NCBI GenBank assembly: GCA_000091205.1
Contig: AP006497.2
Direction: 5' to 3' (one strand)
DNA: 64,000 nucleotides
Source: Cyanidioschyzon merolae
Lineage: Eukaryota
The notes beneath the pieces were generated by a model. That model ran no database searches. It was given only the letters and a program-made list of their open reading frames with translations, and was not told where the DNA came from. This document shows positions 1,588-52,743 of the stretch, piece after piece (positions within the stretch are counted from its first letter, which is position 1; every line of letters starts with the position of its first letter). The position numbers were made by a program, and so were the translations under genes.

Positions 1588-1636
1588 ACACACACACACA
1601 CACACACACACAGACAGACACAGACAGACACACACG
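1588..1636. repeat. (CA)n/(GACA)n compound microsatellite; a shorter (CA)n lies at about 1426-1441
   Basis: acacacacacacacacacacagacagacacagacagacacacac seen directly. Confidence 0.9.
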
Positions 1637-10989: not shown

Positions 10990-11160
10990 CGATCTCCCGT
11001 CGGGCGTGCGGCGCATTCGAAGCGACCAAACAGAAGTTTCGGGAAATACCGGATTTTTTTCATTGACAAAACGTTTACTTGGGCCAGCGTACTCCGATTA
11101 TGCGCTTTTTTCTTTTCTTTCTTTTTTTGTGCTTTTTTTTTTCTGTGCGCGTTGAGGGAA
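10990..11160 (+). repeat. Partial copy (T-rich core) of dispersed repeat D (see 43575-44200 and 53590-54340)
   Basis: about 85% identity over roughly 130 nt to 53915-54025 (ccgattcttttcatggacaaaacgtttccatcggccagcgttctccgattacgcgcatttttcttttctt...). Confidence 0.7.
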
Positions 11161-19906: not shown

Positions 19907-21674
19907 CGATACGGTTCTGGGCGCGTAGGCTCAGCGCCGATCGTCTTCTCGCACCCGTACGTTGATTGTCGCCCTGTGTGTGTGTGTGTGTAGGATCGGC
20001 ATGCGAACATCGAAACGCTTTGATCTTTTACGGTTTCATCGTAGGTCGGTTTGTTCGGATACAATATTCGGATTATGAATGCTGTATTCAAGCAGAGGAC
20101 AAGACGAAGAAGGAGCCGGTGTTTAGGAGCAAGGATGAAGTACTCGAGCAACGTCGCGAGATGCGTTGCCGCAGCTCTATCAAGGTGTCTCGTACGCTGC
20201 AAGGAAATGGAAATCAATGCACAACGACGATGGAGACAGGCGGAATCCCATTTTGCATGCAATTTGCGAAACCGTTGCTTGATCCAGCCAACGAGGCTCA
20301 GGTTCGGCAGTTCAAGGTAGACGAAGAGAAAGATCTGGTGATGAGCGTGCATCTAGGATTGAAGAATATCGTGTTTGGTGGCTCAAAACCAAACCAAGAG
20401 GCCAGCGCCAAAGAGCGGAACGGAAAACGGATTAGGCTGGTTAAATTTTCCAGGGCGCGCTCGTCAACGAGAAACGCGCGCTATAAACGCCACGAGATAC
20501 ACCGACAAATGGAGTGGCAGCCTCAGTGCTCATCCAGACGCTCTGAGCACTCTTTCGAGCAGAGAACGATGCTTCACACACTTCATGACGTGGTTGTATA
20601 AGCGTTACAATGGCTCTCGAAGAGGATTTTTTCACTCGAGTACATGAGACCGTGCTGGGGCCGCAAACGCGGCTGCGGTTGTACCAAGACGGATCGGGCA
20701 CGTTACCCAATTTGTTCAATGCGATGGAAGAGGAATTGGAAATAAACGTCGTGTCGTTTGGTGGTCGCCTAAGCTGCTGAACGCGCTGTAGCGCACAAAG
20801 GGTACCATTCTGCTCCTTCGACGAGAGCGTACAGCTTGTGCAGGAATTGATTTATCCACATTCCCATCGATGAGTACAGAGTGACATGAACAGATGACGA
20901 GCACGGTTTTACGCTGTCACAAATAGAGAAGAAATGCGAAAAACAGACCCGAATCAACGAAATGGTGTACGGTACGCTGAACAGCCGTTCAAGATCTAGA
21001 CAATCGACGTTGAGACGCGTGCGATAATGTGATTCCACACGAGCAGCCAGGTGCGCAAACCCTTTCTGCACCCAGACTACAGCGCCTCGATTAACTTCAG
21101 GAGATCTTTGGTACCCTCGGAGCATCCGGATGATTTGTCTAGAGCATATATTCGAGACAATCGTTTGGTACTCAGGGTGGGTATTGTGATGGAAAAAAAG
21201 TCGTTGATCAGCAGAAAGAGAGAGCGTGTGTGCACTCTGTATTCCTGCCCGATCGCGAGCCCATGGTATGGTACGGTTCAGCGGAATCCAGGTACATCGG
21301 AGCGCCATATACGTACATATACCGAGAATAAATTTTCTGGGCAATTCTTCAACGATAACTGTTGTGCATGATACGATATTTCTGCGTATTCGTTATCCAG
21401 AGGCGGCGTACGGGAACTCCTAGGAAACGTGGAAATACATGGACAAACCTGTCTAAACTACAGCCGAAGCCGCATTCGTCACTCCAGATGGTGGACACGC
21501 GCGCTTCCCTTCCTTCCCTGACGTCGTTTCTTTTTCTGTGCTGCCGCCTGACGCAGACTACACAGATTGCGCACTGGAGGCTAGCTTTCTGAATAGTGTA
21601 CTAGGCTCTTCGCTAATGATCATACATACCTGAGGAGCAAGTCACTTTGAGCGTTTGCGGTCCGAATCTCACAC

Positions 21675-26106: not shown

Positions 26107-26504
26107 GAAAACGGCGCGTTACCTGGCGTTCGGGCTAAGAGGTTCACGCGATCTGTCCACGGATGAATCAGGTTCAGAGCCTCAGCTTTGCTACACCGCT
26201 GAGAACCTGCCAATGGATCTCACCCTTTCTGCAAGAAAGCGCCTCGCAGAGCGGCGTCTAACCTCTTCCAAACAACACCCCGGGCTAACTGCGACGCTGC
26301 CCAGAGCACGAGTGCACAGCAGCGCGGCTTCGACGTCTGCGTTGTGCCGCTGCCGCCGAACTGGCAGCCGCGCCGACGTCCATCCACAGGCGCGATCGCG
26401 TAGGCGGACACGAGCGCCGTGCAGCATGCGTCTATCGGCTGTCAACTCAAGTGTGTTTCATCCGCGGGTGCGTTGCAACGAATGCTTTTTCGCAGGGTAT
26501 AACA

Positions 26505-27893
26505 GGGGATGGAATTCACGATACAATGTACCGTATCGATCGTAGATCAGTTGGATGTCGGATATGGATTCTTTACTGAACAGGGCAAAGAGGACTGCAT
26601 TCCGCCTTCGGGTCTCTCATAGGGTCGTACTCAAATGGCTGAGGAATATTGAAAGAAACGTGCAGATGTACTCCGTACCAAAAACTGGTATTCTCTAATA
26701 CTGCTTGCGGTCTATGGTAGAAAACGACCAGTTGATCGCCTTTTGCGGAAGGTAAAAGCGATAATAATAGACACCAGCGGCGTCTCTGTTTCTCAACAGG
26801 TGGTTCATGTGGACGTGAAATCTCTGGGATCCAATCGCAGAAAAAGTACGAGTTCACGCACAGCCATCTTCCACGGAAATCGCAACTACGGAATTCCTGG
26901 AACGTCAAGATCGGTATGAAGTAGACGAACGTCAATTTGTTTCTGCAGAAGATGTGAGTTCCTTCTGAGGAAACGATCGGAACGTCTATCGGTACGCGCG
27001 GAGCAGGGCACCAGTTTTGTGTACGATTGAATTCGAAGAGAACGGCGACATCATCTGCTCTAGGCGCAGTGGATTCATTTGGCAGCCTCAGCGTCGCTCC
27101 TCGAGAAGGCGCTTACCAAAGCACCCACTTGGTTGAACCATTGAAGATCTTCCCGAATGTCTGGCGAAGGCCTTCCATTGGACAACATACCCTTTCACCA
27201 TTCCACATGCGTTCGAGCTTTTCTTCGATTCTATCGGGGCAGAGCTGCTTTTCATTCCTCCATACCCTCAGAGATTCATCCCCATGAAACAAGTGTTTGC
27301 CATCGTGAAGCGTAATGATCCCTCCACTGCACGAATCCATGAATCGTTCTGCTCACGGTGACTCACAGGGACATATTTCGCCGTCCTTCCGCAAATCTAT
27401 CTCGCTCCTGCAAGGTCCTCAGCTAGGGACATAAAGAAGTGCTTTCATTTTGAAGAAAAAATGTTCAAGGCATGAGCTGAGTTGTAACCTTCAGCAGGTC
27501 GAGCTCGAAACAAGGCAGCCGAGCGCTTCTGCGATAGAAAAGTACGGAAAGCTGATAGACCACCAAATGGTAATGAGGGCACGGCCTCGAGGACTCCTTG
27601 CGCTGGTAAGTTCCACTAGCGGTAGAGCATGCAAGGAGGTCGCGAACCGAGACTGCAACGTCGCCACCAAGATCAGATGATATGCGGTGCCAAAGACGAG
27701 ACTCCCGGAGCTGACGCGATCCAACTTTCTGGGGCAGCCTCTCAGGCTCGAAGGGTGTTCGGATAAAAAATGAAACCTTTAGCAGGAAGCCGGTCAAAAA
27801 ATGCTGAAAGGCCTCTGCCGATGGATATCCATTTCCCCTACAGGGCCGTCGGACATTTTGTTTCACTGACGACGTTTGTATACGCGCAGGTTT
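26505..27893 (+). mobile_element. Non-autonomous (internally deleted) derivative of the Fanzor/TnpB-family element: roughly 0.85-kb left-end region joined to a degenerate C-terminal/RE segment; no intact ORF
   Basis: 26505-27390 aligns (same orientation) with 47352-48240 of the full copy. 27450-27680 translates to RARPRGLLALVSSTSGRACKEVANRDCNVATKIR, a decayed version of KVRGLLAFVSTTNDGKKRMEFVNRDFNAAINIRR. The 3' 200 nt align with the right end of copies at 50400-50613, ending ...gtttgtatacgcgcaggtt. Confidence 0.75.
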
Positions 27894-31879: not shown

Positions 31880-33646
31880 TCATCGGTATTGGGCATGGTT
31901 CTGTTCGCGTATATGGCGGAAGAGCGCGTTCCTCGAAGTGAATAACTCGCTGCACGTCTGGCACTTGTACGCGGCAGGAGCACCAGCGGCAGCAGCGCCT
32001 GCATTTTGCGCTGCCGTTGCTGCTGCGAGATGACGACGACGACGACGATCCTTCGCTGTTTCCGCACGTCGACGGTGTGGTCGGCTGCGCTCGCGATCTC
32101 CCAGGGCCCGCAGCTCGTCCGTATGGGCTGCAGCGTGCGTGCCTGCTTCGATATCTCGGCCCGCGTTCGTTGATTTGCCGTTCATGTGGGCGTCTTGCAT
32201 GGAGCGAGTGCGTTCAGCCTCTTTAGTGGCGCTCTTGGGATCACTTTCAGAATGTGCATTCCTGGTGCCGACTGGAACGGCGAGGTCGTCTTCGATCTCA
32301 TCATCATCATCATCATCGGCATGGTGGCGCCTAGAAACGCTCTGTTCCGATTCAGAAGAAGCCTCGACGGAGCTTGCAGGACGCACACCGGCTTGTTCGT
32401 CTTCTGAACATTGACCCTCGCAGAGCGAGCCGTCCCCGTCAGGCAGCTTTTTTTGTCTCTCGCTGGATGCACGTTGTCGCATCGTCTCGTTGGGGTGCGC
32501 GTCTCCATTCACCACGTCGTAGACGTGATCCTCGTCTCCTGTTGCTTCCACCTGACCCATAATCCGGAATACCTGCACTTCTTCGCCTTTGGCAAGACAA
32601 AGATCCTTGCGAAAGCGTCGTACGCAATCCCGATGCTTCTTGCTATGCTCATGATTTTCCCACTGGGCAAACGTTTTGAAATACTTCTTACACGCAAGGC
32701 ATTGAACACCTTCGATCGTTGGTTGAACCGCATCACTTGCTCCGTGAGGCTGGTTCACATCAGGTGCCTCCTCGCTGATGCCAGCGTACTCCAAATGCTC
32801 CAGTAGCTCCTCAAGATTCGGTATATCCTCTTCAAGCTGCGCAGCAAGCCTCGCCGCATGCAGAGACCGAAGGCGTTCCCACTGTTCTCTTTCCTGGACT
32901 TGTCGTTCTAGCTTCTCAGCTTCTTTTCGTGCTTCTTCTTCCTTGTGTTTCAATACTCGACGATCCCGCTTTTTCACAAAGGCAACGAGCTCTCGCACGA
33001 GCGCTTGGAACTCTCTGCGAGCACGCTCCCGCTCGCGGCGGTTGTCGCGTTCTATGGCCCGTCGAATCTCCCGGTTCGGCGCCTCGCTCGGGTTCCAGGA
33101 GTCCGCAAACGCGAACGTCTTCGCTGATACAAAGTTCTCCCAGAAGTTATAGAAGCGACGTACACTGGGCCAGTCCGCTGTGGCACTGCCGAACGGGGGC
33201 GGCTGTGCGCCTCCGGCTGCCACCTCTTCTCTCGCAAGCTGCTCGAACGCTGCTCCGTATACGTGATAGAAACCTCGTTCTCCGTCTTCGTAGCCATTAT
33301 AAGCAGAAGATCGGAAATATTCATATATATTGAGTTCTGTCGCCCGGTTCACCGTACGCTCTGTACGAGAAGCGGCACCGGTGTCCGTCCCAGGCGCTTG
33401 AGTCGCCTCCAGCGGATCCCGGCCGCGCAGGATATCCTCTCGGTGGTCATCATACCATTTTCGTTCATGTGGGTCTGAAAGCACTTCGTAGGCTCTCCGA
33501 AGCTCCTTGAAAGCCTCCGCTGCCTCTTCTGGTCGGTCGGGATTCTTGTCAGGGTGCAGGCGAAGCGCTGCTCTGCGAAACGCTCGCGTGATCTCCTCCG
33601 CGGTGGCGTCCCGTGGAACACCAAGAACTTCGTAGTGACAGCGCAT
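31880..33646 (-). CDS. J-domain protein with two C2H2 zinc fingers (DNAJC21/Jjj1-like ribosome-biogenesis co-chaperone)
   Basis: MRCHYEVLGVPRDATAEEITRAFRRAALRLHPDKNP...AFKELRRAYEVLSDPHERKWYD (J domain with HPD), CLACKKYFKTFAQWENHEHSKKH and CQTCSELFTSRNALFRHIREQNH (C2H2). The ORF-track extension to 33853 is read-through of the adjacent transposon end, not part of the gene. Confidence 0.85.
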   Translation of the reverse strand: MRCHYEVLGVPRDATAEEITRAFRRAALRLHPDKNPDRPEEAAEAFKELRRAYEVLSDPHERKWYDDHREDILRGRDPLEATQAPGTDTGAASRTERTVNRATELNIYEYFRSSAYNGYEDGERGFYHVYGAAFEQLAREEVAAGGAQPPPFGSATADWPSVRRFYNFWENFVSAKTFAFADSWNPSEAPNREIRRAIERDNRRERERARREFQALVRELVAFVKKRDRRVLKHKEEEARKEAEKLERQVQEREQWERLRSLHAARLAAQLEEDIPNLEELLEHLEYAGISEEAPDVNQPHGASDAVQPTIEGVQCLACKKYFKTFAQWENHEHSKKHRDCVRRFRKDLCLAKGEEVQVFRIMGQVEATGDEDHVYDVVNGDAHPNETMRQRASSERQKKLPDGDGSLCEGQCSEDEQAGVRPASSVEASSESEQSVSRRHHADDDDDDEIEDDLAVPVGTRNAHSESDPKSATKEAERTRSMQDAHMNGKSTNAGRDIEAGTHAAAHTDELRALGDRERSRPHRRRAETAKDRRRRRHLAAATAAQNAGAAAAGAPAAYKCQTCSELFTSRNALFRHIREQNHAQYR

Positions 33647-33686
33647 GACAAATGTTTGTGCCGCTTTTGGGGTCTGCCCCTGATCG

Positions 33687-34480
33687 TTATTAGAACCCCA
33701 CCAGAAGAAACGCATTTTCCCACGGAAGCGGCAGCGAACGCCGTTCAACAGTCGAAAGTCGCCAGCAGTGTACAGTAGTTGCGAATGACCTGCCCTAGAC
33801 GAGACACGTCCGAATGACGTGCAGACGCCTCCCAGTATTTTTGGACCGGCCACCGACTACTGGTTCCATTTTTTTCTCATATAATCTAACCTTGAGATGT
33901 TGCCCTGCAAAAATTTCTCTTGTCATCTCTGGAGGCCTCTTGTCCATCACCGCACGTCTCCTGATATTGATAGTGGCATTAAAGTCTCGATTCACAAACT
34001 CCATGCGTTTCCTGCCATTGGTAGTTGTATTCATTAGTGCGAGTAGTCCGCGAATTTTCGCCTTAGTTTCCATTTGCACTTCCGCCAGCGCTTTGTACTT
34101 TTTTACACCCTCAAGGCTCGGCTGACACTGCTCCATCTTGACCTTCTGGAGCGTACACCACAGCTCGTGGCGTATGTTGGATGTTCGGAACTCATATATC
34201 GGTATTGTGACGAAACATCGTGCGCATTCCTTGTACGCTCATTGCGAGTTGCTGTAAACCGGAAACGAAATTCTCCTCGACAAGCCATAAAAGTGGTGTT
34301 GTGGCTTTCCGCCAGACACGGTGGCTGTTTTTGCCGTGTCCATGGTCCCGCAGGCGTGTCCCGGAGTGCGCTGACTCCATAAAAGCCGCGAGTTCGCGCT
34401 GCTGCCCTGGCATCGGGGTGCTGGCGGCTCCACAGCACAGATACCTCATGATGTGCGGGCGAAGCATGCTGCTTCAGCAC
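33687..34480 (-). mobile_element. 5'-truncated copy of the Fanzor/TnpB-family element (RuvC-II, Zn-finger region, RuvC-III and right end retained)
   Basis: Minus-strand translation IYEFRTSNIRHELWCTLQKV...KIRGLLALMNTTTNGRKRMEFVNRDFNATINIRRRAVMDKRPPEMTRE...YEKKMEPVVGGRSKNTGRRLHV; right end aligns with other copies and stops at about 33687, 40 nt upstream of the DnaJ ATG (33646). Confidence 0.8.
33795..34480 (-). pseudogene. C-terminal fragment of the TnpB/Fanzor-like nuclease gene (broken frames upstream of RuvC-II)
   Basis: ORFs 33795..34136 and 34192..34467 are in different frames but collinear with the C-terminal third of copies at 40.5-42.9 kb and 48.3-50.5 kb. Confidence 0.75.
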
Positions 34481-34779
34481 CGTAAGAACGATGCGCTCTC
34501 ATGCGCGTTCCCCTATGATCCGAGATGTAATCCACAGAGTGATGCTGGCGGCTATGACCGAGCGTCTTGCATATAGAATGCAAATCTGGGAACTGCGGCC
34601 TAAGGCTCGGAGTTCCAAGTCACGAATGGTCCATATGCTCACGATCGGTACTCGAAGCGAGCGCGCTGGACATTATACACTGCTTTGCTGCACGAGAACA
34701 GTGCTATGCTCGGGGCCGGCTAGAGTACCTTACGAAAAGTCAGCAGGAACGTCGCTTTCAGGTACGGTGCGTGACACGG

Positions 34780-35672
34780 GCTAGGCGAGAGCGATCCGTT
34801 TGCGAATCATTTCGGAATGCGAATTCGATGTTCATGAGTGTCTTCCCGTAGTAATGCCTCTTTACTTCAGGTTCGAGGCGCGCCTGTTCGAGTTGGTTTA
34901 GCGCTTGCGTTCGAGCTTTTTGTCGATTCCATCGGGAAGCAGACCTGCTTTTTATTCTTCCTTGCACTCCGTGATTCAAGCCCATCACAGACGTGTTTTC
35001 TATCGTGAAACGTAATGATCGCTGCACTGGGCGAATCGCTGAAGCGTTCTGCACAATCACGTCGGAGCATATATCGTCGTTTTTCAGCAAGTCTTTCTCC
35101 CTCCGGGCAGGTCGTCGACTACGGGCATTCAGAAGTACGTGCATTTGTCGAAATAGAAAATCCATGCGAAAAGTATGGACATGAAAGTTAGGGATCCCGG
35201 AGGGTCGTCATTGCCAGGCGCCGGAAAAATGGATATATTGCTCTCCTCGTCGACCAGTGAGCGAAGAAGAGCAAGCGAAGATGATGACGAAGAAGAAGAG
35301 AATAGATAGGCGAGAAAAGATGGATGCCCGACGAGACGCTGGCGATTCTTTATTAGCACTGACGGCGCGAGTTCTAGCAATCCTGGCAATCGTGCGTTCA
35401 ACCGTCGACGATGCTCGCATGTAGCTCGTGAACCGAGACTTCACTGTCACCATCAATATCAGACGATGCGCGGTGCAGGAAACGATACCCGAGGAGCTAT
35501 GACGATCCAACTTCGTAGGGCATGCGCTCAGGCTCGACGCGTGCCTGGATACACTGAAGCTGCCAGCAGGTGGCTGGTCAGAAAAAATGGGAGGCTTCTG
35601 CACGCGGGCACCAGTTTAACCTCCATGGGCGCGAAATGCCTATCGTTTTACTGACTACAGACGTTCATTCTC
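34780..35672 (+). mobile_element. 5'-truncated non-autonomous derivative of the same family (3' part of left-end region + degenerate RuvC-III/RE segment), head-to-head with the fragment at 33687-34480
   Basis: 34860-35400 aligns with 48040-48520 (gcgttcgagctttttgtcgattccatcggg..., gtgttttctatcgtgaaacgtaatgatcgc..., gacgagacgctggcga). 35420-35500 translates to LVNRDFTVTINIRRCAVQETIPEEL; right end aligns with other copies to about 35672. Confidence 0.7.
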
Positions 35673-36541
35673 GAGCTCGCTCGTACGGCCACCAGCAACT
35701 AGTATACTGTGTTAAGAAGCATGCACAGTGAAATTCCGCAAAAGCTGAGCAGTCACCTGCATGCTGTTCTGATCTGGTAGGCTCGTACGCCATTTGGAAC
35801 GTTGGAGTCGTTTGCTTGTGCCTCCTTCGCGAACGAGCGATGCGGCGTCCGGAACCTTGGCCAAAACGCGTTCCAATACATTATTTCGAAAAGCTGGGCG
35901 TGAGACGCGAGTCAGGACGAAACGGCAATGCGCGCTCAAAGTATGGAAGACTCGATAGAGTCGACCTATCGAAAACAGCTGAGAACCCGAGGATACCAGT
36001 CGAACTTCAACGGTCTTGGACGAAGTTCACAGCCTCAGCACTTGAAATGCCATCCAAATCGCATCAAAACTTGAATATTGTTATTCGGGAGCAAATCGCG
36101 TCTCCGCGCTGGCCTGCCAGGGTTACGCCTCCGATGCCGTTCAGGTAGCCTTCATTGGAACTGGTTGTCTCCCAATGAGCCGTCTCGCTCGGCGGACCGC
36201 TCCCGCAGGCAATGTGCGTTTCCATTCAAAGTCAATCACATGCATCAAGCGTTCCAGGCGCTGCTCATTCGCCTGCACGGGACACTCGCAGGGCAACACG
36301 CTCTGCAGGCACAAGACACTAGTACGATATGCGCGTCCTTCGCAGATCAGCTCCATAGATTGTGGAACCCAAACGACGCTCCACATTCACCCAAGGACGA
36401 GAGAGCGCCCGCCCCGCAGAGCGATGGGATCCGCACGCGGCTCCGGTGCGCAGCCGCTGCCACGCGTCGTTATCGGGAGGCCTCTTCCGACTGACGGCAT
36501 CAGGTCATCACACGCTCATACAATGCTCAATCTCCAACCGG

Positions 36542-38224
36542 CTACGGGGAAAAGCTCTGGAAGAAGGAAATCGAAAAACCCTCGTCAAACCGGTCGCCAT
36601 CGCCACGTCGCAGAATACGTGCCCAGTTGACTTCAAACCGACCGAGGCTCGTACAGCAGGCGAGTCCAAGACCCGCTGACATGCGCCAACTCTGGCGCCA
36701 CGCGACAGCGTCCGACCATTCCCGACAGTCACCTATTGCACAGAACGTGTGGAACTGTAAGCCGAGGGAGCGTGCCACTGCACTGGTAACGATCGGGACG
36801 CCTAGATGTAAACCTAGTTTGTAGTAGACATCTCCACCGATGCTGTCTCCATCGGCGCTGGGCCCTAGGCCCCGATTCCGGAAGCCTCGGAATGCATTCG
36901 CACTGCCGCCGACGAAAAATCGATCGCAGATCCTCGTCTGACGCAACGCATGCCGGGGGCCGGCACGGTGCTCGCTTTTCCGGTCTTTCATCGCAGCGAG
37001 CGCTTGGTGGAAGGGAATGATCATTCCCCCCTGGAAGCCAACTGAGAACACGATAGGAGGCATCAGACGCTCGGGTGGTGACGGGGCAGCGTCACCAGCT
37101 GCAAGTGAATCGTCCACATTGCGCACGAGTTCGCTGCCGTCGGCTCCCGTCAGTGGCACATTCCACTGCCACGAGAGCTCGCTTCGAATAAATCTCGTTG
37201 CGGGATCGCCACCGAGTCCCGCTAGTTCACAGTTCCACTGAGCATTCGTACCCTGACGAGGCGCCAGCGGATCGTCGCGACCATCCCGGGTCCAGGTGTA
37301 TTTGAATGAGCTCTTCACTGAGTGCCCAGCTTGTTCACGAACCCTGATGCTTGCGTGCGGTGCGACTTGCCCCAGCTCGCGCCAGCTGCACTCATAAGCG
37401 AAACGTCCGAACCGCGTCTGGAGGCCGGCTTCAAAGCTGCGCTGAAACTCACTATACGAACTTGTGTCCATGCGATTCAGCAGGGCGCTCTCGGCACTTG
37501 CCGTCGCCAATGCGTCCAGTAACCCCCAGGGATGTGGTTTTCGCCAACCGCAAACAAGATGATTCGTGGCTGTTTGTTTTGCAAATAGGTAGCGGTTCGG
37601 GTGCACCAGTGCAGCGAGGCTACTCAAACTCGAGAGCGCGAATCCGGACCCGCCGACGCCCGCACCAAGTTGGCAATGCAAAGCATCTCCCGTCCCAGTA
37701 AAGTTTATGAAGCCTCCATCAAGCTCGAGAGCGGTCTCGCCGGTGCGCGTATCGGTAGAGGTCCCAATACGGAGTGAAAAAGGTGGCGCCTCACGCACAG
37801 TAACGAGTGCATCGCAGGGCACAGACTCTGCAGTTGGCTCACCGTTCGCAGGGACCGCCGATTCATCGATGAGAATGTCCACTGCACGGAAACACTCGGT
37901 CAGACGGAGTCGCTCGGTTGCGAGTGACGCTCGTTCGAGGAGCTCCTCGAGTGTCAACGAGCGGCGGCTAGACTCAGGAGGCAACGAGTCTCGGTTCTGC
38001 TCCTCCGACAAAGATGCATCTAGGAGGCTCTGGACAAAGTCGATGCGAGTTCGTTCGACGCCGCGAATAATGACCCGCCGCAGACGAACTGTTTCACGCA
38101 AGATGTCGCGAACTGGTGCTTCAAGATTTTGCGCTGAGGCAGTAGCTTGCTCAGATCCGGAAACCATCCGCGGGTGCGTACCAGTGCAGCGCTCCTTGAA
38201 GAAAGCTGCCGATTTCTCCACCAC
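36542..38224 (-). CDS. Sam50/Omp85-family outer-membrane beta-barrel assembly protein (mitochondrial SAM50-like)
   Basis: ASIRVREQAGHSVKSSFKYTW...QWNCELAGLGGDPATRFIRSEL and DRFFVGGSANAFRGFRNRGLGP...GGDVYYKLGLHLGVPI are collinear with SAM50 (ASFAVRKESGHSLKSS..., DRFYLGGPTSIRGF...GGEAYWAGGLHL); N-terminal POTRA-like segment. Confidence 0.85.
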   Translation of the reverse strand: MVEKSAAFFKERCTGTHPRMVSGSEQATASAQNLEAPVRDILRETVRLRRVIIRGVERTRIDFVQSLLDASLSEEQNRDSLPPESSRRSLTLEELLERASLATERLRLTECFRAVDILIDESAVPANGEPTAESVPCDALVTVREAPPFSLRIGTSTDTRTGETALELDGGFINFTGTGDALHCQLGAGVGGSGFALSSLSSLAALVHPNRYLFAKQTATNHLVCGWRKPHPWGLLDALATASAESALLNRMDTSSYSEFQRSFEAGLQTRFGRFAYECSWRELGQVAPHASIRVREQAGHSVKSSFKYTWTRDGRDDPLAPRQGTNAQWNCELAGLGGDPATRFIRSELSWQWNVPLTGADGSELVRNVDDSLAAGDAAPSPPERLMPPIVFSVGFQGGMIIPFHQALAAMKDRKSEHRAGPRHALRQTRICDRFFVGGSANAFRGFRNRGLGPSADGDSIGGDVYYKLGLHLGVPIVTSAVARSLGLQFHTFCAIGDCREWSDAVAWRQSWRMSAGLGLACCTSLGRFEVNWARILRRGDGDRFDEGFSISFFQSFSP

Positions 38225-40574: not shown

Positions 40575-43090
40575 ACCCCTGGAAACAAACGTCTTTCAAA
40601 AGAAAAACGATGCAGCCTGCGGTATACAGAAATGGCGCGCAGCGCGCCCGAGTCAGAACGTCTCCAGCTGACGTGCAGTCGCCTCCCCGTCTTTTTGGAC
40701 CGGCAACCTACTACTGATTCCAACTTTTTTTCATATAATTCCACTTTGGGAGGTTTTCCAACAACGTTCTCTCTTGTCAACTCTGGAGGTCTTTTCTCGA
40801 GCACCGCACATCTCCTTATATTGATGGCGGCGTTAAAGTCTCGGTTCGCAAACTCCATACGTTTCTTGCCATCATTGGTTGTACTTACTGATGCAAGCAA
40901 TCCTCGAACTTTCGCTCTCCTTTCCATTTGCTCTTCCGTCAGCGCTCCGTACTTTTTCGTATCCTCAGGGCTCCGCTAGCACTTTTCCATCTCCACCCTC
41001 TGAAGTGTACACCCCAGTTCATGGTGTGTATACGATGTTCGAAACTCATCCATTGGTATCGTAACGAAACGCCTCGCGCACTCCTTGTACGTTCTTGTCG
41101 TTGGAGCTGGAGTAGTCCCTTTTTGGGTCTTCCAGCGCCCTGCTCCGTACCCTGCTACGAGCCTCTGACTTTTATCCTCCTTCAGGGCACTCAACTGATT
41201 GAAAAAACTCTCGAACGCACGCTGCTTACCACACTATAGATTCATTCGCAAACGAGCCCACCGGGGCTTGGTATACTCCTCCCACAATGCATTCCAATGA
41301 GCAACGCGAACTTCCATGAATTTCCGAAAAGCTTTAAAGTCCGCTCCTCGGCTCGTCACCTCGCTCACAGCTTCCAGGTGCTCGTTCATTCCTGCATTCC
41401 ATTTCTCGATTTTCTTCCTCGTATTCATGATTCCCGATTCTCGATGGTATCTCGCTCTCGAGAACCTCAAAAGACGCATATCTTTCTGATGCAAGGTACC
41501 GTCAGTACCATCTTCCCCACGCTTCGGTGCTGCGATGGTTATGATACTTGTGTTTCCAGCGTCCGCGCCAACGACAAAGTCGTTCTCGTGCATCTTCTGT
41601 GTCGCAGGACCCGCCTTCTTCTCATCTTCATGGTTCTCCGAGGGCGGAACGGGCCGATCCACACTCAACCGCCGATAGTGTATGCACCTGGCTACTCCAT
41701 CGGTTTCGATCATCCCAGTGAATACCTTTTGTCTGCTTACTTTCAGACGTTTGAAATCGAAGATACTCTTCCGGGGCATCTCCCGGTTTTCGTCGGTGAA
41801 CTCCTCCCTGCGAACATCGAACTCCGGACAGATCTCCTTCAAGATGCCATGAAGGATTCTCGAGTCCATAGTCACAAAATGTGACTTGATATTGCAAATT
41901 GGAACCATGTTGAAGCGCTTCCCCATTAGGGCCGACTTCCGCCTCTCCCACTCTTTATTTGTCTCCTCACTCAGCTTCCTCTCTGCCTGGCGTTCGAGTT
42001 CTCGGTCCAGAACCACAGAATAGCGCAGGACGAGGCGATAGTATCTTTCCTTAACTTTTTTTCAACTCTGATATCTTTTCTGTTGGATTCGCCAGCTCCA
42101 AGACTGCACGGTGCTCTTGTATTACGGCACGGATGACGGAGTCCTCATTCATGCTCTGGTTTGACGCCTTCTTGTCGACGAATTCGATCTCATCTTCATG
42201 CTTACGATCGTTCGTGGTGCCATTGAGGTCCGCCTATACTCCATTGCGAGAGATGCGCGGGTAGCGTGCAAACACGGCACGTATCATGAAACGTTCGAGG
42301 TTCATTGTCAAATGGTTCTTCAGATTCGTGAGGTATTTCATGGCCCCATAGTCCTAAATATCCCGGTCACCCCTATACCGAGTACCCTCGAAGCGGAATT
42401 CCGGGAAGGTTTCGTGGAGGACATGCACTGCTCATTTTCCCTCCGCGCTTTCGCTGTACCAAGCATCAGGTGACGAATAAACGTCGTGTCGAAGAATTCT
42501 TCCGGAATCTCGACTGTTTCCATGTGCGTCACGTCGCGATACATCTCCTTCACCAAATGCATCAGTCCTATAGAGTCCATACGAACCCTCGTGAAGTACG
42601 AATCAACATAATTTCTGATGGCCTCTCGCAGATTTTGCTTGTGCGGATCCTGAATATGGCCTAGATGGCATGATTTCTTTACAATCTTGAAGTAGGGTCG
42701 TCTTTCGAGTTGCATTTGGCGCCGGGCCCCCCCTTGTTTTGCGTCATCGTCGTGTCTTGTTTCTCTTCGGTCGGTATTCTTTTTCGCTTTTTCCGCTAGC
42801 CGGCGACGCTGCCCCTCCAGGATCCTCCACTTCCTTTTCCATAACTTTCCTCTTTTATTTTTTTGTAACGCACTTTGAACGCTTCTGCTATAAACCGCGA
42901 AAAAAACACGAGAATACACTTGTTTGAGGTTTGAGACACAAATGAACGGAAAAACTGTACTTTGCTACAACTTTAACGCAAGTACAACTTTTATATTAGA
43001 GCAGCACGCTATTGATCAGGATCGCGTTTCCCTTCAGCTGCGGGATGCGCGTCGTGACTCGAAAACTAACAGATCTCCCTGGTGCGCAAA
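40575..43090 (-). mobile_element. Near full-length copy of the Fanzor/TnpB-family element (copy D), with a truncated left end
   Basis: Collinear on the minus strand with copy 47352-50613 from the N-terminal basic region (42919) to the right end (acccctggaaac at 40575-40586); about 75-80% nucleotide identity. Confidence 0.85.
40660..42919 (-). pseudogene. TnpB/Fanzor-like RuvC nuclease gene, inactivated (at least 3 frameshifts, 2 in-frame TAG stops)
   Basis: ORFs 42338..42919, 41234..42016, 40976..41194 and 40493..40927 form one collinear protein: N-terminal KRKWRILEGQRRRLAEKAKKN (basic), [17 protein letters not shown] (RuvC-I), IPMDEFRTSYTHHELGC (RuvC-II), NRDFNAAINIRRC (RuvC-III). TAG replaces Tyr at 41234-36 and Gln at 40976-78 relative to the other copy. 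Confidence 0.85.
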
Positions 43091-43574
43091 TCGATAGCGC
43101 TATGTAGAACAAAGAACAGAGACTCACGACTAGCGAGCAACGATACAGCAATTTCTCTCCCGTTCTACGATAAACGTTGAAAACGGGGAAAAGGTTCCCA
43201 TATTCTGAAGAGTCCTCCCTCTAGGCGAAAAGTCCCGCGAGCCGGACGAGTCTCCCGGACTCGTGCTTCGTGCTCCACCCAGTAGCGGGCGCTGTGGCGA
43301 GACCTGAGCAGTTCGTCCGCAACGCGGTTCATTCTGGGACTAGATGCGGGATGCTGTGTTTGGTCGTCGCCCTGATCGCAGTAGACTCCTAATATATCGG
43401 TTCGCGCTTTCGCAGGCAGTAGTTCTGTCTGTTTAGCCTACAGGCTCCCAGAATTATTCTGGACTCCAACGCTGTATCAGGTAAAGCGTTCCTCAATCCG
43501 TCGCCCTCAGTGGTATGGCAACGCTGTTCTATCTCCATGATGCATCCGTCCCAGTGGTATAGGCGCTAAGGCGG

Positions 43575-44200
43575 GTGCCCAAAGCAGGCACTCGGTCGCA
43601 CTACAGAACGCACAAAACGATCTGTACATCCGAAAGGAAGTATAAGGAACGGAGCATGGAGGTAGAGTGCATCATGATGGACACTTTTTCGATCAGCTAT
43701 ACCCATCCATCTCGCTATCTGGAATCCAAGTACAATGTAAACGTTTTGTCATTGGAGAGAAATCAGCGGCAACAGCAAATGCAGCGGATTTTGTTCCATG
43801 TGAAAACTTCTCACACAGGCGAGCGTGCCGCGACTCTGTGTGCTTGCTACCTGCGCGCGGTGAAACTTTCGTCGTTCCACGCTTTACGTCCGAGTTTCAT
43901 AACCCATACTTCTTCTCGGATGTACTGGCGTTTCAGACGTACTATCGGGCGCCGAGTGCCTGCCCGTGAACATCCGCCTCAATAGCGCTTGTAGCGCCGG
44001 TGCTGTCGTAGCACAGAAACAGAACGGCGTTGCCGTACCGCAGACGGCGTCTGCTCGAGGCATGCTTCACCTGACGTAGAACTGGGTCTCGTTGTCAGGT
44101 TGTGCTCGGACAGCCTGCGGATGCAAAACTTGCTTTCGCTGCACAACACATTGGAGAAACTTGGCTGTTACGATGAATCCTGGGAGCCGCCTCTCTCCTG
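43575..44200 (+). repeat. Dispersed repeat D (about 0.6 kb) lying 0.5 kb upstream of petC
   Basis: 43860-44200 aligns at roughly 80% with 54000-54340 (for example aatagcgcttgtagcgccggtgctgtcgtagcacag...gagaaacttggctgttacgatgaatcctggga); weaker similarity extends to 43660 / 53690. Confidence 0.75.
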
Positions 44201-44701
44201 CGTGATCGTACATGGAAAGCGTCGCCCTCGGTTGGCGACTCGGGTCTGTGCTTGGCACCCACCAGTGAGTAGGTACGCGTAACACTGGTCCCGTGTGCGC
44301 ATCTGGTTTGCTGGACCTTCCACCTAGAAGGTAGAGTATGAGTTCGCTGACCACTGGTGAGTGCTGGAGCTCAGTTACGGGACCATCAGTTGCTAGCACT
44401 ACACTCAAAGTAAGTGGCTGGCCTTCATTTACCACAGTGATTCCCAGATGTTAATGTCTCTCAAAGAGATAGCTGCGTTCTTTTTTTCCAGCACAGGCAC
44501 AGAAAGCTTAAGTGTGCTGGCGTCTCTGGCATCCCGATTCCGCTGCACCGAACGCCGCGATCCTTCGAAGCCCTGCATCGCGAGCACGCTGCCGCCCATC
44601 GTCGATGATCACGAAACGATTTTTCCGTTCGTGTTGCATGAACGTTTGCGTTCTTACTTGATTGCAACTCGCAGTTTCATTGTTGTGTATAACGCTGGAT
44701 A

Positions 44702-47351: not shown

Positions 47352-50300
47352 GGAGATCGAAATCACAATGCAATGCATAGTGTAGATCGTAGATGATTTG
47401 CATGTAGCATATACATTCATTTCTGAACAGTGCAAGGAAGACTGTATTCCTCGTTTAGGACAGTCATACCACCGTACTCAGATGGTTGGCAAACACTGTA
47501 AGAAAAATGTAGATGCACTCCGTGCCAGAGATCGATATTCATTGAGGTCGCTTGCAGTCGATCTTAGAAAACGATCCGTTGATCACCATTTTCGGAAAGC
47601 AACAGCGACGATAATAGCCGCCACAGGCGTCACCGTTTCTCAACAGCTTATTCTTATGATCCCGAAAACATTGGGATACAATCTCAAAAAAAGTCATCGT
47701 TCAAGCAAAGGCATCTTCCATCCAAATCGCAACGACAGAGTCCCTGGAACGTCACGATCGATAGGAACCACTGGATCGTCAGTTTGTTTGTTCAGTTGAT
47801 GAAAATTGCTTCAGAAGGCACGCTCGGAGCGTCAATGGGTATTCGAGGTGAAGGGCGCCCGTTGTACGTTCGATCGAGCTCGAAGAGAACGACGAAATCA
47901 TCATCTATTATAGCTTTAGAAGATTTATTTGGCGGCCTCAGTTTCACTTGTAGAAAAGACACATGCAACAGCACCAACCAATTTGTCCAAGCATTGAAGA
48001 CTTTTACCCGACGTCTGGCGACGTCCTTCTATTGGGCAACGTGGCATATCACCATATCGCTTGCGTTCGAGCTTTTTGCCGATTCTATCGGGGTAGGGGT
48101 GATTTTTGTTCGTCTGTGCGCTCCGTGGTTCAAGCGCATTGTAGGAGTGTTTTCTATCGTGAAACGTGATGATCGCTCCCCCGGGCGAAACGCTGAGCGT
48201 TCATCACTCGGTAACACATCGGGGTACATGCCATTTATCTTGCGAAAGCCACGCTCCCTCCGAGAAAGCCCTCATCTAAGGGCAAAAAACGTGCGGTCGT
48301 TTTGACGAAATAAAACTCCAAAACAAAGCTATGCACGTGCAAGTCGGGGATCCTGAAGGGCCCTTGCCGCCGGCTGGCAGAAAAAAACGAAAAATTCTGC
48401 CAATGGAATAGGAACAAAACAGAACGAAGAAGCAAAAGGGCGAGGCCCGACGTCAAAAGCTGCGCGAAAGACGACTATGCGACGAGACGCTGGCGAAAGC
48501 CTGTCTTGGTAACCATATCAAGGATTCGGACAAGCAAACATGCAACAAGTCATCCGAGACCGTGTCGAGTCGCACTCCATGAGTATTGTAAAGGATTCTT
48601 CAGGACTAATGCCTTTGACGAAGGAGATGAATCGCGGCGTGACGGGCATCAAAACAGTCGAGGTTCCGGGAGAATTTTTCAACACCATCGTTATGCATCA
48701 CCTGATGCTTGGCACAGGGGAAACGTCGAGGAGAAAGGAGCGAATGCATGCCCTCCACAAAATTACCCCGAATACCCTTTTCATCGGTAATCGATACCGG
48801 CGTGACTCGGATATTTACACGTACGGGGCGAAAAAGTACCTCACGAACCTAAAGAACCATATGAACATGAACCTCACACGTTTCATGATACGTTCCGTCT
48901 TCGCGCTGGACCCGTGCCTCTTTCGCAAAGCGATAGACGGGTTACCATCAATGGCATCTCGAACGATAGTAAGAACGAACAGGAGATCGAACTCGTCGAC
49001 AAGAAGACCTCGCACAGGAGCATGAATGAGGCTTCTGTCATCCGCGCGGCTATTCAAGAGCACCGTGCACTCTTGGGGCTCGTTGACCCAGCAGAACAGG
49101 TATCAGAGATGAAAAAGATGGAAAAAGAAAGATGTTACCCACACTTCCTGCGCTATTTCGTGTATTTGGACCAAGAACTCGAACGCAAGGCTGGGATGGA
49201 GCAGGGTGTGCGGAAAAATGCAGAGTCGGTAGAACGGAAGGCTGCGCTTGCGGGTACGCGCTTCGAAGTCGTTCGGTTATGCGAGATCAAGTCGCACTTT
49301 GTGACAATCGACTCCAGAGTCCTTTACGGAATACTGAAGGAGATAAGTTCGGGGCTCGATGTACGCAACAAGGAGTTCACCGGTGAAAATCGGGACACGT
49401 ACTGGACGCATGTCTTCGACGTCAAGCGTCTCAATACGAGCCAGAAAAGGTATTCAGAGGTGTCATCGAAACTAAATGAGTAGCCATGTGTGCACACGAT
49501 CGGCGCTTGAAGGCAGATCGTCATATCGTGCCTTCGGCTTCGCCCGTGACGAAGCATGAAGATGTGAAGCAGGCGGATCCCGCGACGCAGGAGGTTCAGG
49601 ATACTGGCTTTGGCGGCGGCGCGGACCCTGGGATGACGAATATCATAACGATCGCAGCACCGAAGCGTGCGGGAGATGGTGCTGATGGTAACCTGCGTCA
49701 GATAGAAATGCGTCTCTTGAGGTTCTCGAGACCGAGATACTACCGAGAATCCGGTTCAATGAATGCGAGGAAGAAAATCGAGACATGGAATGCAGGAGTC
49801 AAGGATCAGCTGGAAGCTATGAGCGAGGTGACGATCCGACATGCGGACTTTCAAGATCTGCCAGAGTTCATGGACACTCAAGCTGCTCATGTCGAGGAGC
49901 TGCGGAAAGAGTATCGAAAACAAAGGTGCGCTCGTCAGCGTTTGAATCTGTACAGAGAGAACCAGCGTGCATACGCCAACGATTTCAATCCGTTGAGCGC
50001 CTTGAAGGAGGACGAGAGTCAGAGGCTGGTAGAAGCGTATGGGGCAGCGCGCTAGCTGGCCCGAAAAGGGACTACGCCAGCTCCAACGACAAGAACACTC
50101 AAAGAGCGTACACGGCGTTTTGTTACGATACCAATAGGTGAGTTCCGAACATCGTATACACACCATGAAGTGAGGTGCGTACTTCAGAGGGTCGAGATGG
50201 AAACGTGCCAGCGGAGCCAAGAGGATATAAAAAAGTACAGACCGCTGACGGAGGAGCAAATGGGAAGGAGGGCAAAAGTTCGCGGACTCCTTGCATTCGT

Positions 50301-50613
50301 GAGTACAACCAATGATGGCAAGAAACGCATGGAGTTTGTGAACCGAGACTTTAACGCCGCAATCAACATCAGAAGATGTGCGCAGCTGGAGAAAAGACCT
50401 CCAGAGTTGACACGAGAGAGAATTTTGTCAGACGACCTCTCAAGGTCGAAGTATACGAGAAAAAGTTGAAACCAGTAGCAGGTGGCCGGTCGAGAAAGTC
50501 GGGAAGGCGTCTGTACGTCGGCGTATAGGCATCCGATCTGCGGCGCGCCGCTCGCCACTCCTGTACCCCTAGCGACAGCGTTTTTCTTGTGAAAGGCGTT
50601 TGTTTCCAGGGGT
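47352..50613 (+). mobile_element. Full-length copy of the Fanzor/TnpB-family element (copy E): roughly 1-kb non-coding left-end region, nuclease gene, roughly 90-nt right end
   Basis: Left-end region shared with 26505-27390 and 34860-35400; ORF segments 48331-50525; right end gtttttcttgtgaaaggcgtttgtttccaggggt conserved in all five copies, ending at about 50613. Confidence 0.85.
48331..50525 (+). pseudogene. TnpB/Fanzor-like RuvC nuclease gene, inactivated (at least 3 frameshifts, 1 in-frame TAG)
   Basis: ORFs 48540..49025, 48914..49483, 49486..50055 and 50170..50469 lie in frames 0/2/1/1. Motifs: PAGRKKRKI (NLS-like), GGGADPGMTNIITIAAP (RuvC-I), IPIGEFRTSYTHHEVRC (RuvC-II), NRDFNAAINIRRC (RuvC-III). 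TAG at 50053-55 where copy D has Trp. Confidence 0.85.
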
Positions 50614-50652: not shown

Positions 50653-52743
50653 ATGCCTCAATGGGACAAGCGCGCCAGACAGCGAAGAAGCAACCAGTCT
50701 CGTTGGCGTCGGGAACCATGGGAGACGCAGGAAGTCGCTTCACCGTTAAGTTGGCTCTGCTTGCCTGCGCGTGTGCTAGCGTGCTTTGGCTCACCTCCGA
50801 GCGAAGAGCTCGCTGAGTCGGCGCAGCCGCCCGACGACATTGTGCCTTGGGAGGACTCCGAAACCGCCGACTCGTCTTCTCAAAGCAGTTTTGGTGGCTC
50901 TGATGAAGGTGCGCGCCAAGAGCTTGCGTGCCGTACGCGAGCGGAGAAAGTGGACGGCAACGGCGCTGGCACCGAGAACGACCAGGATGAGCAACTATCC
51001 GTCGAGCTGGACGCGCTTCGTCGACGTCGCTCCTTCTCGGCCACGAGCTTCCACTTGCCAGCTGTATCCCGTCCAACAGCGGCAGGTAGCATTGTCGACA
51101 TACCGTCAGAGCGTCCACAGACCGCGCAACGCAGAGAACGTCAACGTATCGTGGGCAAGTTGGCGCTCGTTGGGCTCGGTACTCAGCTTCTGCTGCTCAG
51201 CTTGAAGTTGTACAGATTTGAATCGCTCTCACCAGCGTATCTCGTTTTTTCCGTCGCGTTTTTCGTGTTCAGCGGAGGACTTGCTTTCCTGAGTCTCCAC
51301 TACTTTAAAATGGGGCGCCTGCCACCTTTTCTGGATGTGGCTGCAAAACGGCGAGAAGCGTCGCACAACCGTTCGTGTGGGACAAGCCCGGCCCGCTCCA
51401 ACACCGACTCGACGATGCGTACGCTGAGCGGAGCGGGTTCGGCGTTCAGTACTCCAACGGCGGACAGATCGCCATGCACGCCCAAGTCTCGAATTGCCTC
51501 GCGCTCTCGAGAGTACGCTCAAAGCTTCCAAGAAAAAGGCGATGCGCAGGTCGTCAGAACGTCATTTGACTCGCGATCAAACCGACGAATCTTCTCAGTG
51601 CTGGGTGTCGAGAGCTCGCAGTCATTTTGCGAGCAACAGGGGTGCAGTACAAGAATGCCGAGCAAGAGTCGACCGGCAGCGATACGAATCGACGTTACCA
51701 GCGAGCGTACCGCGGCAACATCAGCGAGCGATGACGCAGTTAGTGCGGACAACATCGCCGTGTCCGTCAGAGAGCCGTCCACGCTCTCTGATGCCGATGC
51801 TGATCATACAGAGCATGGTATCGAGAAGCGTCGCGGCACCTTCCGCGAAAAGCCCGGCCAGCGAGGCACGCCCGGTGTTCGCGCTGCTGTTGCCGAAACC
51901 CAGCGACGACATGTGCAGCGGGCGACAGAAACTCGTAGCGCCGGCGCACCGGCCTTGCCGGTACCAGACGCTTCGGACCAGATGAGAGCTGGCGCATCCT
52001 TAGAGCAACGGCGTCGATCCCGCGAGGCATCCTCTCTGTCAGACGACGGAACGCCTCCCGAAGTGCAAATTGAGTCACTGCGTATTGTAGAGAGTTGGGA
52101 GAAGATGCGTATAACAGCAAAGAAGGAAATCTTAGCGGAAGATTTTTGCGAGGGAATGCTCAGTCTATTGAGCGTCATCGATGCATTGGGTCCCGCTTTT
52201 CGAATCATCAAAATCGACATTCGAAATCATGTGAATGGGATCCACCGCAGCTGCACGAAACACAACTGCCGCACCCTGCAGCGCCTCATTGATGCAGAGT
52301 CGAATCGGGTATCACGCTGGTTGAATCCATCGGGCATTGGCGATGGTACGGAACATGTGCTCTGGATGAAACGGGCCATGCAGTTTGTGTACATGCTGTT
52401 GTACATGTTTTTGGATGGCATCGATTTAGACCGGTGTGTATACCATGCATATCGCATGACGCTGCGAGCCTGTCACCCGTACATTGTCCGGAAAGTAGCG
52501 GAGAACCTGCACCGCTTCGTCCCTACCAGAGCTGGCTTTTTGCGCAGAATCCACGCAGATGAGGACTTTGTTTTAACGCAAATGCGGCGATTCTTGAAGG
52601 CAATCGAACCGCGTCTTGATATTATCGTTGAGGTATTCAACGCAAACCAGCTGGAACCGCACTGTCGATTCTCATGCGCAGAATTGCGCCGGCTGGCACA
52701 GCACTGTGCAAAATATGATATCGACGAGGATATGACGCAGTGA
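50653..52743 (+). CDS. Membrane-anchored protein with a C-terminal glycolipid-transfer-protein (GLTP) domain
   Basis: C-terminal 200 aa: LSVIDALGPAFRIIKIDIRNHV...HVLWMKRAMQFVYMLL...AYRMTLRACHPYIVRKV parallels the GLTP fold (LWLKRGLKF...AYxxTLxxxHxWxVR). A transmembrane stretch LALVGLGTQLLLLSL...FFVFSGGLAFLSLHYF precedes it. The ORF-track start 50641 is TTG; first ATG is at about 50653. Confidence 0.55.
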   Translation: MPQWDKRARQRRSNQSRWRREPWETQEVASPLSWLCLPARVLACFGSPPSEELAESAQPPDDIVPWEDSETADSSSQSSFGGSDEGARQELACRTRAEKVDGNGAGTENDQDEQLSVELDALRRRRSFSATSFHLPAVSRPTAAGSIVDIPSERPQTAQRRERQRIVGKLALVGLGTQLLLLSLKLYRFESLSPAYLVFSVAFFVFSGGLAFLSLHYFKMGRLPPFLDVAAKRREASHNRSCGTSPARSNTDSTMRTLSGAGSAFSTPTADRSPCTPKSRIASRSREYAQSFQEKGDAQVVRTSFDSRSNRRIFSVLGVESSQSFCEQQGCSTRMPSKSRPAAIRIDVTSERTAATSASDDAVSADNIAVSVREPSTLSDADADHTEHGIEKRRGTFREKPGQRGTPGVRAAVAETQRRHVQRATETRSAGAPALPVPDASDQMRAGASLEQRRRSREASSLSDDGTPPEVQIESLRIVESWEKMRITAKKEILAEDFCEGMLSLLSVIDALGPAFRIIKIDIRNHVNGIHRSCTKHNCRTLQRLIDAESNRVSRWLNPSGIGDGTEHVLWMKRAMQFVYMLLYMFLDGIDLDRCVYHAYRMTLRACHPYIVRKVAENLHRFVPTRAGFLRRIHADEDFVLTQMRRFLKAIEPRLDIIVEVFNANQLEPHCRFSCAELRRLAQHCAKYDIDEDMTQ

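Follow-up and report, generated by a model that had tools for sequence, protein, structure and literature searches.

Relics of a Fanzor1 family beside the DnaJ gene of Cyanidioschyzon merolae, and a possible bias of the family's right ends towards host gene starts

The spacer between the genes for Sam50 and a DNAJC21-like J-protein (hereafter DnaJ) of Cyanidioschyzon merolae 10D contains two fragments of mobile DNA, designated D and E, which we have analyzed within a 64 000-nucleotide (nt) stretch of contig AP006497.2 (the window). Positions 33724–35665 of the window very probably hold two dead relics, inverted 5′ to 5′, of the Fanzor1 family CMe-1A of C. merolae and of the non-autonomous derivatives of that family. 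The pair is real, but it is an ordinary pair of relics of a family known in this genome, where this kind of element was described in 2013. The only part of the analysis that might be new is the placement of the right ends of the family beside gene starts. We suggest tentatively that Fanzor1 right ends, comprising a terminal hairpin and a 13-nt tail, lie non-randomly ~10–120 nt upstream of co-oriented host starts, including those of the essential MCM5, FtsZ, ATP synthase beta and DnaJ, and that this arises either by strand-specific integration or because the right end provides a portable promoter or 5′ leader.

The two fragments are on opposite strands, 5′ end towards 5′ end, and comparison by blastn bears out the preliminary description of this DNA as a head-to-head pair of one family lying between Sam50 and DnaJ. 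Proceeding from DnaJ towards Sam50, the region is divided as follows.

33716–33723, minus strand: host spacer from the right end of D to the DnaJ ATG, 8 nt (21 nt from the hairpin).
33724–33794, minus strand: fragment D, 3′ untranslated part and right end (from an alignment of 45 right ends, motif scan and nhmmer).
33795–34240, minus strand: fragment D, Fanzor1 coding remnant, residues ~605–750 in one open frame (stop codon 33795–33797; open reading frame (ORF) 33795–34136).
34241–34324, minus strand: non-Fanzor 5′ segment of the D-type unit; a paralogous copy has this junction (34240) as well.
34325–34898, no strand: unassigned spacer between the D and E units, with no homology to the family or to fetched sequences.
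34899–35204, plus strand: fragment E, left part; its homologue is non-coding 5′ sequence in B-type elements (48055–48360 in copy B) and in the short non-autonomous ones.
35205–35369, plus strand: fragment E, internal segment found only in short non-autonomous derivatives (L059, L054, L032, L061 and L036).
35370–35665, plus strand: fragment E, right part: what is left of RuvC-III (VNRDFTVTINIRR), interrupted by stops, and a degenerate right end whose final letters, up to 35665, are GACGTT.

Fragment D is 75–78% identical to three reference copies, namely A and B elsewhere in the window and that of the metagenomic locus L001 (blastn E-values 5e-95, 1e-83 and 1e-92, respectively), and its family homology starts at 34240 against all three. 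In a tblastn search positions 34235–33816 match residues 609–748 of the protein reconstructed for the family (see below), in one frame at 69% identity (E-value 8e-53). The fragment reads KECARCFVTIPIYEFRTS ... NRDFNATINIRR; it keeps YEFRTS, corresponding to the DEFRTS of the family, together with the RuvC-III sequence NRDFNATINI, while RuvC-I is absent, so that D does not carry all three RuvC motifs. At its right end there is a decayed terminal hairpin extending to 33737 (…TTTCGACTGTTGAACGGCGTT), and the addition of a 13-nt tail, taken from the tandem-array junctions of other copies, brings the limit to ~33724. Four substitutions have destroyed the stem of this hairpin, and no canonical fold is obtained. 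An nhmmer profile of the right end matches D with an E-value of 1.9e-44, using a profile that includes D itself. The span from RuvC-II through the right end assigned to D in the preliminary description therefore stands as one that begins at the DEFRTS motif and takes in the right end. Its limits, given as 33687–34480, are really 33724–34240 plus at least 84 nt.

Those 84 nt come from comparison with the locus L082. No family homology was found in 34241–34480, yet positions 1–150 of L082 are ~97% identical to window positions 34324–34175, running directly across the 34240 junction, with the remainder ~78% identical. The junction is thus common to another copy, and the 'truncation' of D reflects a small subfamily or a tract of gene conversion, and not a local accident. 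At least 84 nt beyond 34240 (34241–34324) are part of the D unit. The mosaic of identity between D and L082 is in itself of interest, as it suggests either that gene conversion took place ectopically or that the subfamily is young and its 3′ part has been converted.

Fragment E is of a different kind. Compared with copy B by blastn it aligns in two places, with B 48055–48360 (E-value 6e-37) and with B 50277–50390 (E-value 4e-8). It matches L059, L054, L032, L061 and L036 contiguously across its whole length at 68–71% identity; for example, E positions 34941–35574 match L059 with an E-value of 1e-59, and 34902–35403 match L054 with 6e-56. Since contiguous matches exist in other copies, the structure of E is not a private deletion. 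The short non-autonomous copies extend ~700 nt further left than E, into the equivalent of B 47355–48055, and these alignments show E to be a 5′-truncated member of a short non-autonomous derivative, of which copy C of the window is another. The left limit of E is sharp at 34899–34906 against five references, and local alignment further to the left scores no better than shuffled controls. At the other end the nhmmer right-end profile finds only 35565–35604 (E-value 2e-4), and no hairpin folds in E. Thus the preliminary description was right about the type of E, a 5′-truncated end-only derivative, and about its right end (35665, there 35672), and misplaced its left end at 34780. Neither D nor E can encode a nuclease, and the terminal hairpin has been lost in both.

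The breakpoints of the two fragments are consequently at 34240 for D and at 34899–34906 for E, rather than in the 34480–34780 junction that had been singled out for alignment with other copies. The gap between them, measured from the limits of family homology (34240 to 34899), is 658 nt and not roughly 300 bp. Its central 574 nt (34325–34898) gave no match by blastn (zero coverage in 86 loci), by tblastx or by local alignment against shuffled sequences, and the ORFs within it have no Pfam match.

Could D and E be the arms of a single composite, foldback-like unit of 1.9 kb, with inverted right ends at 33724 and 35665? The outer ends do form inverted repeats (33948–34007 against 35475–35416 at 80%, and 33818–33854 against 35604–35569 at 84%), and inverted right ends occur also in L059, 15 nt apart although there tail to tail. 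Each arm is nevertheless closer to its own subfamily, D being 75–78% identical to autonomous copies and E 68–71% to short non-autonomous ones; the 5′ junction of D is found again in L082, where E is missing, no counterpart was found for the central 574 nt, and no flanking duplication was noticed by eye. We regard a composite unit as highly improbable. The two fragments come from separate subfamilies, and their combination was not found at any other locus among the 86.

The family to which the two relics belong encodes a TnpB/Fanzor1 RuvC nuclease. Seven copies or relics were found in the window by self-comparison, being D, E and the following five.

40575–43108, minus strand: copy A, with frameshifts and stops; right-end hairpin ends at 40588.
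47355–50613, plus strand: copy B, decayed, with a 5′ region typical of short non-autonomous derivatives; right-end hairpin ends at 50600.
26504–27880, plus strand: copy C, an internally deleted non-autonomous derivative.
1490–1976, minus strand: older, diverged Fanzor-like relic, 25–30% protein identity to the reconstructed protein (tblastn E-value 1e-6).
20131–21152, plus strand: older, diverged Fanzor-like relic, 25–30% protein identity to the reconstructed protein (tblastn E-value 1.5e-14).

A protein of 751–754 amino acids can be reconstructed from the broken copies A and B. Copy A and this composite contain GADAGNT, DEFRTS and NRDFNAAINI, and the matching columns are invariant in the alignment of the family (A1). 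This is the signature D ... [TS][TS] ... RD of Fanzor proteins, comprising the RuvC-I aspartate, DEFRTS and NRDxNAAxNI (Bao & Jurka 2013, PMC3627910). The C4 zinc finger that follows TS is not conserved in the clade of the C. merolae family. A profile of 15 metagenomic relatives searched against the PDB found PpFz of Parasitella (9cf0, E-value 5.6e-16) and SpuFz of Spizellomyces (8gkh, 1.9e-10). Only the profile succeeded; phmmer with the single composite sequence against the PDB gave nothing useful. Neither the individual fragment ORFs nor the 751-residue composite has a Pfam match, and the only precomputed label is DUF8286, which is weak. An AlphaFold2 model of the relative P0034, 41% identical to the window composite, has a pLDDT of 81.8, and Foldseek matches it to SpuFz, GtFz and PpFz with E-values of 2e-16 to 2e-15 and TM-scores of 0.55–0.71, with Cas12f next. 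The model thus predicts the bilobed TnpB/Cas12-like fold with a RuvC domain for the family. Profile, fold and motifs together uphold the assignment of the fragments to a TnpB/Fanzor-type family. One annotation in the family can be set aside: the Joint Genome Institute (JGI) name 'ribosomal protein L35AE' for the relative P0036 is without Pfam support.

CMe-1A was described in C. merolae as having ~150 copies of ~3 kb, each ~80% identical to the consensus, without terminal inverted repeats and with target duplications undetermined; its 5′ 635 bp are common to a second element, TE-N2_CMe (Bao & Jurka 2013, Mob DNA 4:12, PMC3627910). The family analyzed here is alike in every one of the following respects: it occurs in the same genome, has a TnpB-like Fanzor1 ORF and a length of ~3 kb, its copies are ~75–80% alike, it lacks terminal inverted repeats, and its 5′ part is common to a short non-autonomous element. 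It differs in that the published account describes no gene placement, no terminal hairpin, and no 5′-truncated or internally deleted copies.

Some further observations were made on the copies. L001 6001–8259 is an intact member from a hot-spring metagenome, encoding P0001 of 752 amino acids, which has an internal expansion of about four tandem repeats of ~27 amino acids (…KHEE.K.A.PATQ.V.DND..VD…) directly before RuvC-I. The 5′ limits of copies are staggered over ~760 nt (L010 1309–2072 compared with ~30 loci), and there are at least three different 5′ regions; 'fuzzy' 5′ ends were noted likewise for MCi-2 of Mucor (Bao & Jurka 2013, PMC3627910). A second, unrelated repeat family (70–93% identity) is present at 43477–44500, 53922–54338 and 11050–11124 of the window and at 4397–5129 of L001. 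It adjoins Fanzor copies in both, and its 255-residue ORF in L001 is without a Pfam match. The neighbouring repeat (L001 4832–5599; window 43477–44500) was considered as the tail of a long interspersed element (LINE) reverse transcriptase, for which there was no Pfam support.

The right end of the family was defined with the help of 80 metagenomic loci, and 45 right ends entered the alignment (A3). All copies converge on a terminal hairpin of two variants, CGTCGTTCGA-CTT-TCGAACGGCG and ACGTTTTTC-TTTT-GAAAGGCGT, for which GTTCGACTTTCGAACGGCGTT and GTTTTTCTTTTGAAAGGCGTT can serve as recognition motifs. Both variants have stems of 10–12 bp, with compensatory changes UCGA/UCGA, UUUC/GAAA and UCUA/UAGA within the last 34 nt, and the mean folding energy is −10.7 kcal/mol compared with −6.2 kcal/mol for shuffled sequences. 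RNAalifold applied to the 45 right ends gave only four pairs, one of them covarying CG/GC (18:17), the two hairpin variants being out of register in the MAFFT alignment; folding of each sequence separately was used for the hairpin instead. A 3′ region of ~130 nt is conserved across the family. Conservation stops at GGCGTT, and tandem junctions add a variable 13-nt tail before the next unit. The hairpin could be the last stem of an omega RNA, or a DNA hairpin used in transposition.

The junctions themselves reveal a variety of arrangements. Co-oriented copies occur every 3.1–3.9 kb, with right ends at 1287, 4530 and 8391 in L010, at 904 and 4529 in L045, at 591 and 4528 in L082, and at 1340 and 4480 in L059. 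In L010, L012 and L045 the next unit begins, with its 5′ region, straight after the right end and its 13-nt tail, giving a tandem array, while in L082 genes and elements alternate. At ~4480–4500 of L059 the right end of a Fanzor copy lies tail to tail with that of an inverted short non-autonomous copy, separated by 15 nt.

The distance of D from the DnaJ gene depends on where the latter begins. The gene runs as follows, together with the ORF extension that has to be removed from it.

31880–33715, minus strand: DNAJC21-like J-protein gene, 611 amino acids, identical at 611 of 611 positions to XP_005537479.1 / BAM81443.1.
33716–33853, minus strand: artefactual 46-codon N-terminal extension of a 657-residue ORF, with no in-frame ATG.

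The RefSeq protein starts with MRFFWW at 33715, 69 nt upstream of the ATG at 33646. The orthologues P0049 and P0052, 50–58% identical (alignment A2), begin with MRFF[WR]W; VMRCHYEVLGV comes after a variable stretch of ~17 residues. At the DNA level ATGCGYTTYTT is conserved, and the similarity of the window to the orthologous loci L002 and L003 resumes at 33718. The leader encoded by 33647–33715, compared with L002 and L005, is of note for being unevenly kept between species: there is conservation of MRFF[WR]W, and none of the ~17 residues that separate it from the J domain. The right end of D therefore lies 8–21 nt from the start codon, and not 40 nt from it as in the preliminary description, which had taken the ATG at 33646. 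The ORF 31880–33853, of 657 codons, does exist. It starts with GTG and has no in-frame ATG before M47, so that only the GTG/TTG start rules used for bacteria produce the fusion, and we infer that it is an artefact of those rules. Moreover only 39–43 of the 69 codons that had been ascribed to the transposon are derived from it; 3–7 are host spacer and the next 23 are genuine coding sequence. The trap for annotation that this was thought to present is real, since the JGI call P0048 (630 amino acids, starting with V) runs into D, but it is a minor one. P0048 is alone in this within its 90% cluster, where nearly all the calls are of 610 or 611 amino acids, and the gene model is already correct in RefSeq.

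The account first given of the locus, in which independent or nested insertions arose by local reinsertion or at a hotspot, ended 40 nt before the ATG of MRCHYEV and became fused through 69 transposon codons, can now be weighed as a whole. The two fragments are indeed adjacent, the 657-residue ORF is present, P0048 extends into D, and the database orthologues P0050 and P0051 start at MRCHY/MKC. Set against this, RefSeq and two of four close orthologues start at MRFFWW with the DNA of that start conserved, family homology ends at 33737/33724 with host homology resuming at 33718, and D and E are of different subfamilies with no second such pair among the 86 loci. We consider this account improbable, and local reinsertion finds no support. 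The idea of a preferred landing zone fares better in another form, not as local reinsertion but as a family-wide tendency of right ends to lie upstream of co-oriented starts.

How general is the proximity of a right end to a gene start? In the window a motif scan finds that only A, B and D keep a recognizable right-end hairpin. All three are on the same strand as the RefSeq gene that follows, with the hairpin 21 nt from the ATG for D (XP_005537479.1), 40 nt for A (XP_005537482.1) and 52 nt for B (XP_005537484.1). For a larger sample we took 43 independent metagenomic right-end flanks and recorded the distance to a co-oriented ORF of at least 150 amino acids, counted from its first ATG, with the following result.

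Within 60 nt: 11 of 43 flanks (26%); random positions 2.1%; random non-ORF positions 3.8%; P = 4e-7 against the non-ORF control.
Within 100 nt: 15 of 43 flanks; random positions 3.7%; random non-ORF positions 6.3%; P = 3e-8 against the non-ORF control.
Within 200 nt: 22 of 43 flanks; random positions 6.7%; random non-ORF positions 10.8%; P = 5e-11 against the non-ORF control.

The excess over the non-ORF control is ~6-fold within 60 nt, and the distances cluster at 1–120 nt. Of the 20 nearest downstream ORFs, 17 have clear Pfam domains, among them those of MCM5, FtsZ, ATP synthase beta, phosphoglucomutase, kinesin, a plastid sigma factor, PTH2 and Macro. No homology links the flanks that adjoin genes; the only flanks that match each other are four that abut other repeats. 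We did not find the placement rule in Bao & Jurka 2013, Saito 2023, Yoon 2023 or the C. merolae repeat survey.

A simpler explanation would be that the proximity of D to DnaJ is a by-product of a compact genome, in which insertions survive only in short spacers and so lie near genes by chance. The orthologous spacers have a length of only 396 and 1170 nt, and about half of the 43 sites are without an adjacent co-oriented gene, both of which agree with this. Chance in short spacers does not readily account for the ~6-fold excess over non-ORF controls within 60 nt, the clustering of the distances, or the co-orientation of all three hairpin-bearing right ends of the window at 21–52 nt from RefSeq starts, and we think it unlikely, if less so than the account first given.

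Some 1.9 kb of transposon DNA separates the DnaJ ATG from the ancestral upstream sequence, all but 8–21 nt of it, so that transcription of DnaJ is expected either to start inside the right end of D or to read through it. The D right end may in effect be the 5′ flank or promoter of DnaJ. In Fanzor/TnpB elements the omega RNA is transcribed outward from this end into the flank (PMC10432273), and outward transcription of this type would be a natural source of read-out into DnaJ. The case of DnaJ would then fit the habit of the family in placing right ends upstream of co-oriented starts. As to cause, integration might be strand-specific near transcription starts, for example by a single-strand or HUH-like process acting on the non-template strand at open promoters. 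Equally, it may be that only those insertions survive whose omega-RNA-type read-through keeps the gene expressed. Either targeting or selective retention could thus produce the bias towards start codons.

Several points weigh against these readings. The non-ORF control retains transposon DNA, and for transposon-free spacers of ~400–900 nt the null expectation may be ~6% within 60 nt and ~20% within 200 nt, leaving an excess that is smaller but still present. The 80 loci represent several related metagenomic lineages instead of a single finished genome. As noted above, about half of the sites do without a neighbouring co-oriented gene, and E itself breaks the rule, its right end facing the 3′ end of Sam50 at a distance of 876 nt. 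The position of the DnaJ transcription start is a deduction, as is any promoter activity at the right end, and a literature search for transcription start data in C. merolae found nothing relevant. For the relics themselves, the 574 nt between the fragments have no match, and the probable assignment to CMe-1A follows from agreement with the published description (genome, protein type, length, divergence of copies and lack of inverted repeats).

Comparison with other systems places the family in a wider context. The short derivative E is comparable to the 'ghost' loci of Spu-1 in Spizellomyces punctatus (Saito et al. 2023, PMC10432273), and the predicted fold of the protein matches that of the Spu-1 Fanzor with TM-scores of 0.62–0.71. 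Spu-1 has its own 30-nt inverted repeats and a CA motif at the left end (PMC10432273), whereas the C. merolae family lacks inverted repeats, its 5′ ends are staggered and its right end carries a hairpin. In other respects it is like the HUH single-strand transposons IS200/IS605 (TnpA/TnpB) and Helitrons: terminal inverted repeats are lacking and target duplication is not obvious, a subterminal hairpin lies between a few and ~13 nt from the 3′ end, the 3′ ends are conserved and the 5′ ends variable, and tandem arrays are formed. Neither a CTRR end nor a defined target motif was seen. No HUH transposase was found in the family units, where the ~3.2-kb tandem unit comprises the Fanzor ORF only and has no room for one, and no genome search for Rep/Hel or TnpA was made. 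The likeness to HUH-type transposons would thus be a resemblance of mode and not of membership.

The ORFs of the window are long and intron-free and its G+C content is ~55%, features that at first pointed to a trypanosomatid (kinetoplastid) host. This reading was rejected on finding Cyanidiales relatives of DnaJ and an exact agreement of the DnaJ, MLO2-like and GLTP-like proteins with RefSeq entries of C. merolae 10D. The neighbouring genes referred to above are these.

36542–38224, minus strand: Sam50 gene.
40547–39555: gene of XP_005537482.1, exact RefSeq match.
50653–52743: gene of XP_005537484.1, exact RefSeq match.

The DnaJ protein has the Pfam domains DnaJ, ZUO1-like_ZHD and zf-C2H2_jaz, and a protein search with its ORF leads to relatives in the Cyanidiales. 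The order Sam50-DnaJ-ThiF is kept in the orthologous loci of related species. The Sam50-DnaJ spacer is 2826 nt in the window compared with 1170 and 396 nt in two orthologous loci, and no Fanzor sequence was found in either of the latter. Environmental strains have the same Sam50-E-D-DnaJ arrangement at 99.4% identity, and the arrangement of D and E is thus fixed and old. A search among them for an empty site returned the same haplotype with the elements present (L087–L094 and L095–L100, 99.4–99.5% identical), from which a target site or duplication is not definable. An Rfam scan of 33000–36600 gave no match.

The genome of C. merolae is 16.5 Mb in size, nearly intron-free and genetically tractable. 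If the placement rule is true it would be a previously undescribed relation between a Fanzor-carrying transposon and the starts of host genes, and would provide a handle on the movement of unclassified elements that lack inverted repeats. Should right ends home to the 5′ edges of genes, or be retained there, C. merolae would be well suited to the study of how transposase-less Fanzor1 elements move, and also to asking whether the omega-RNA region of Fanzor1 drives host genes.

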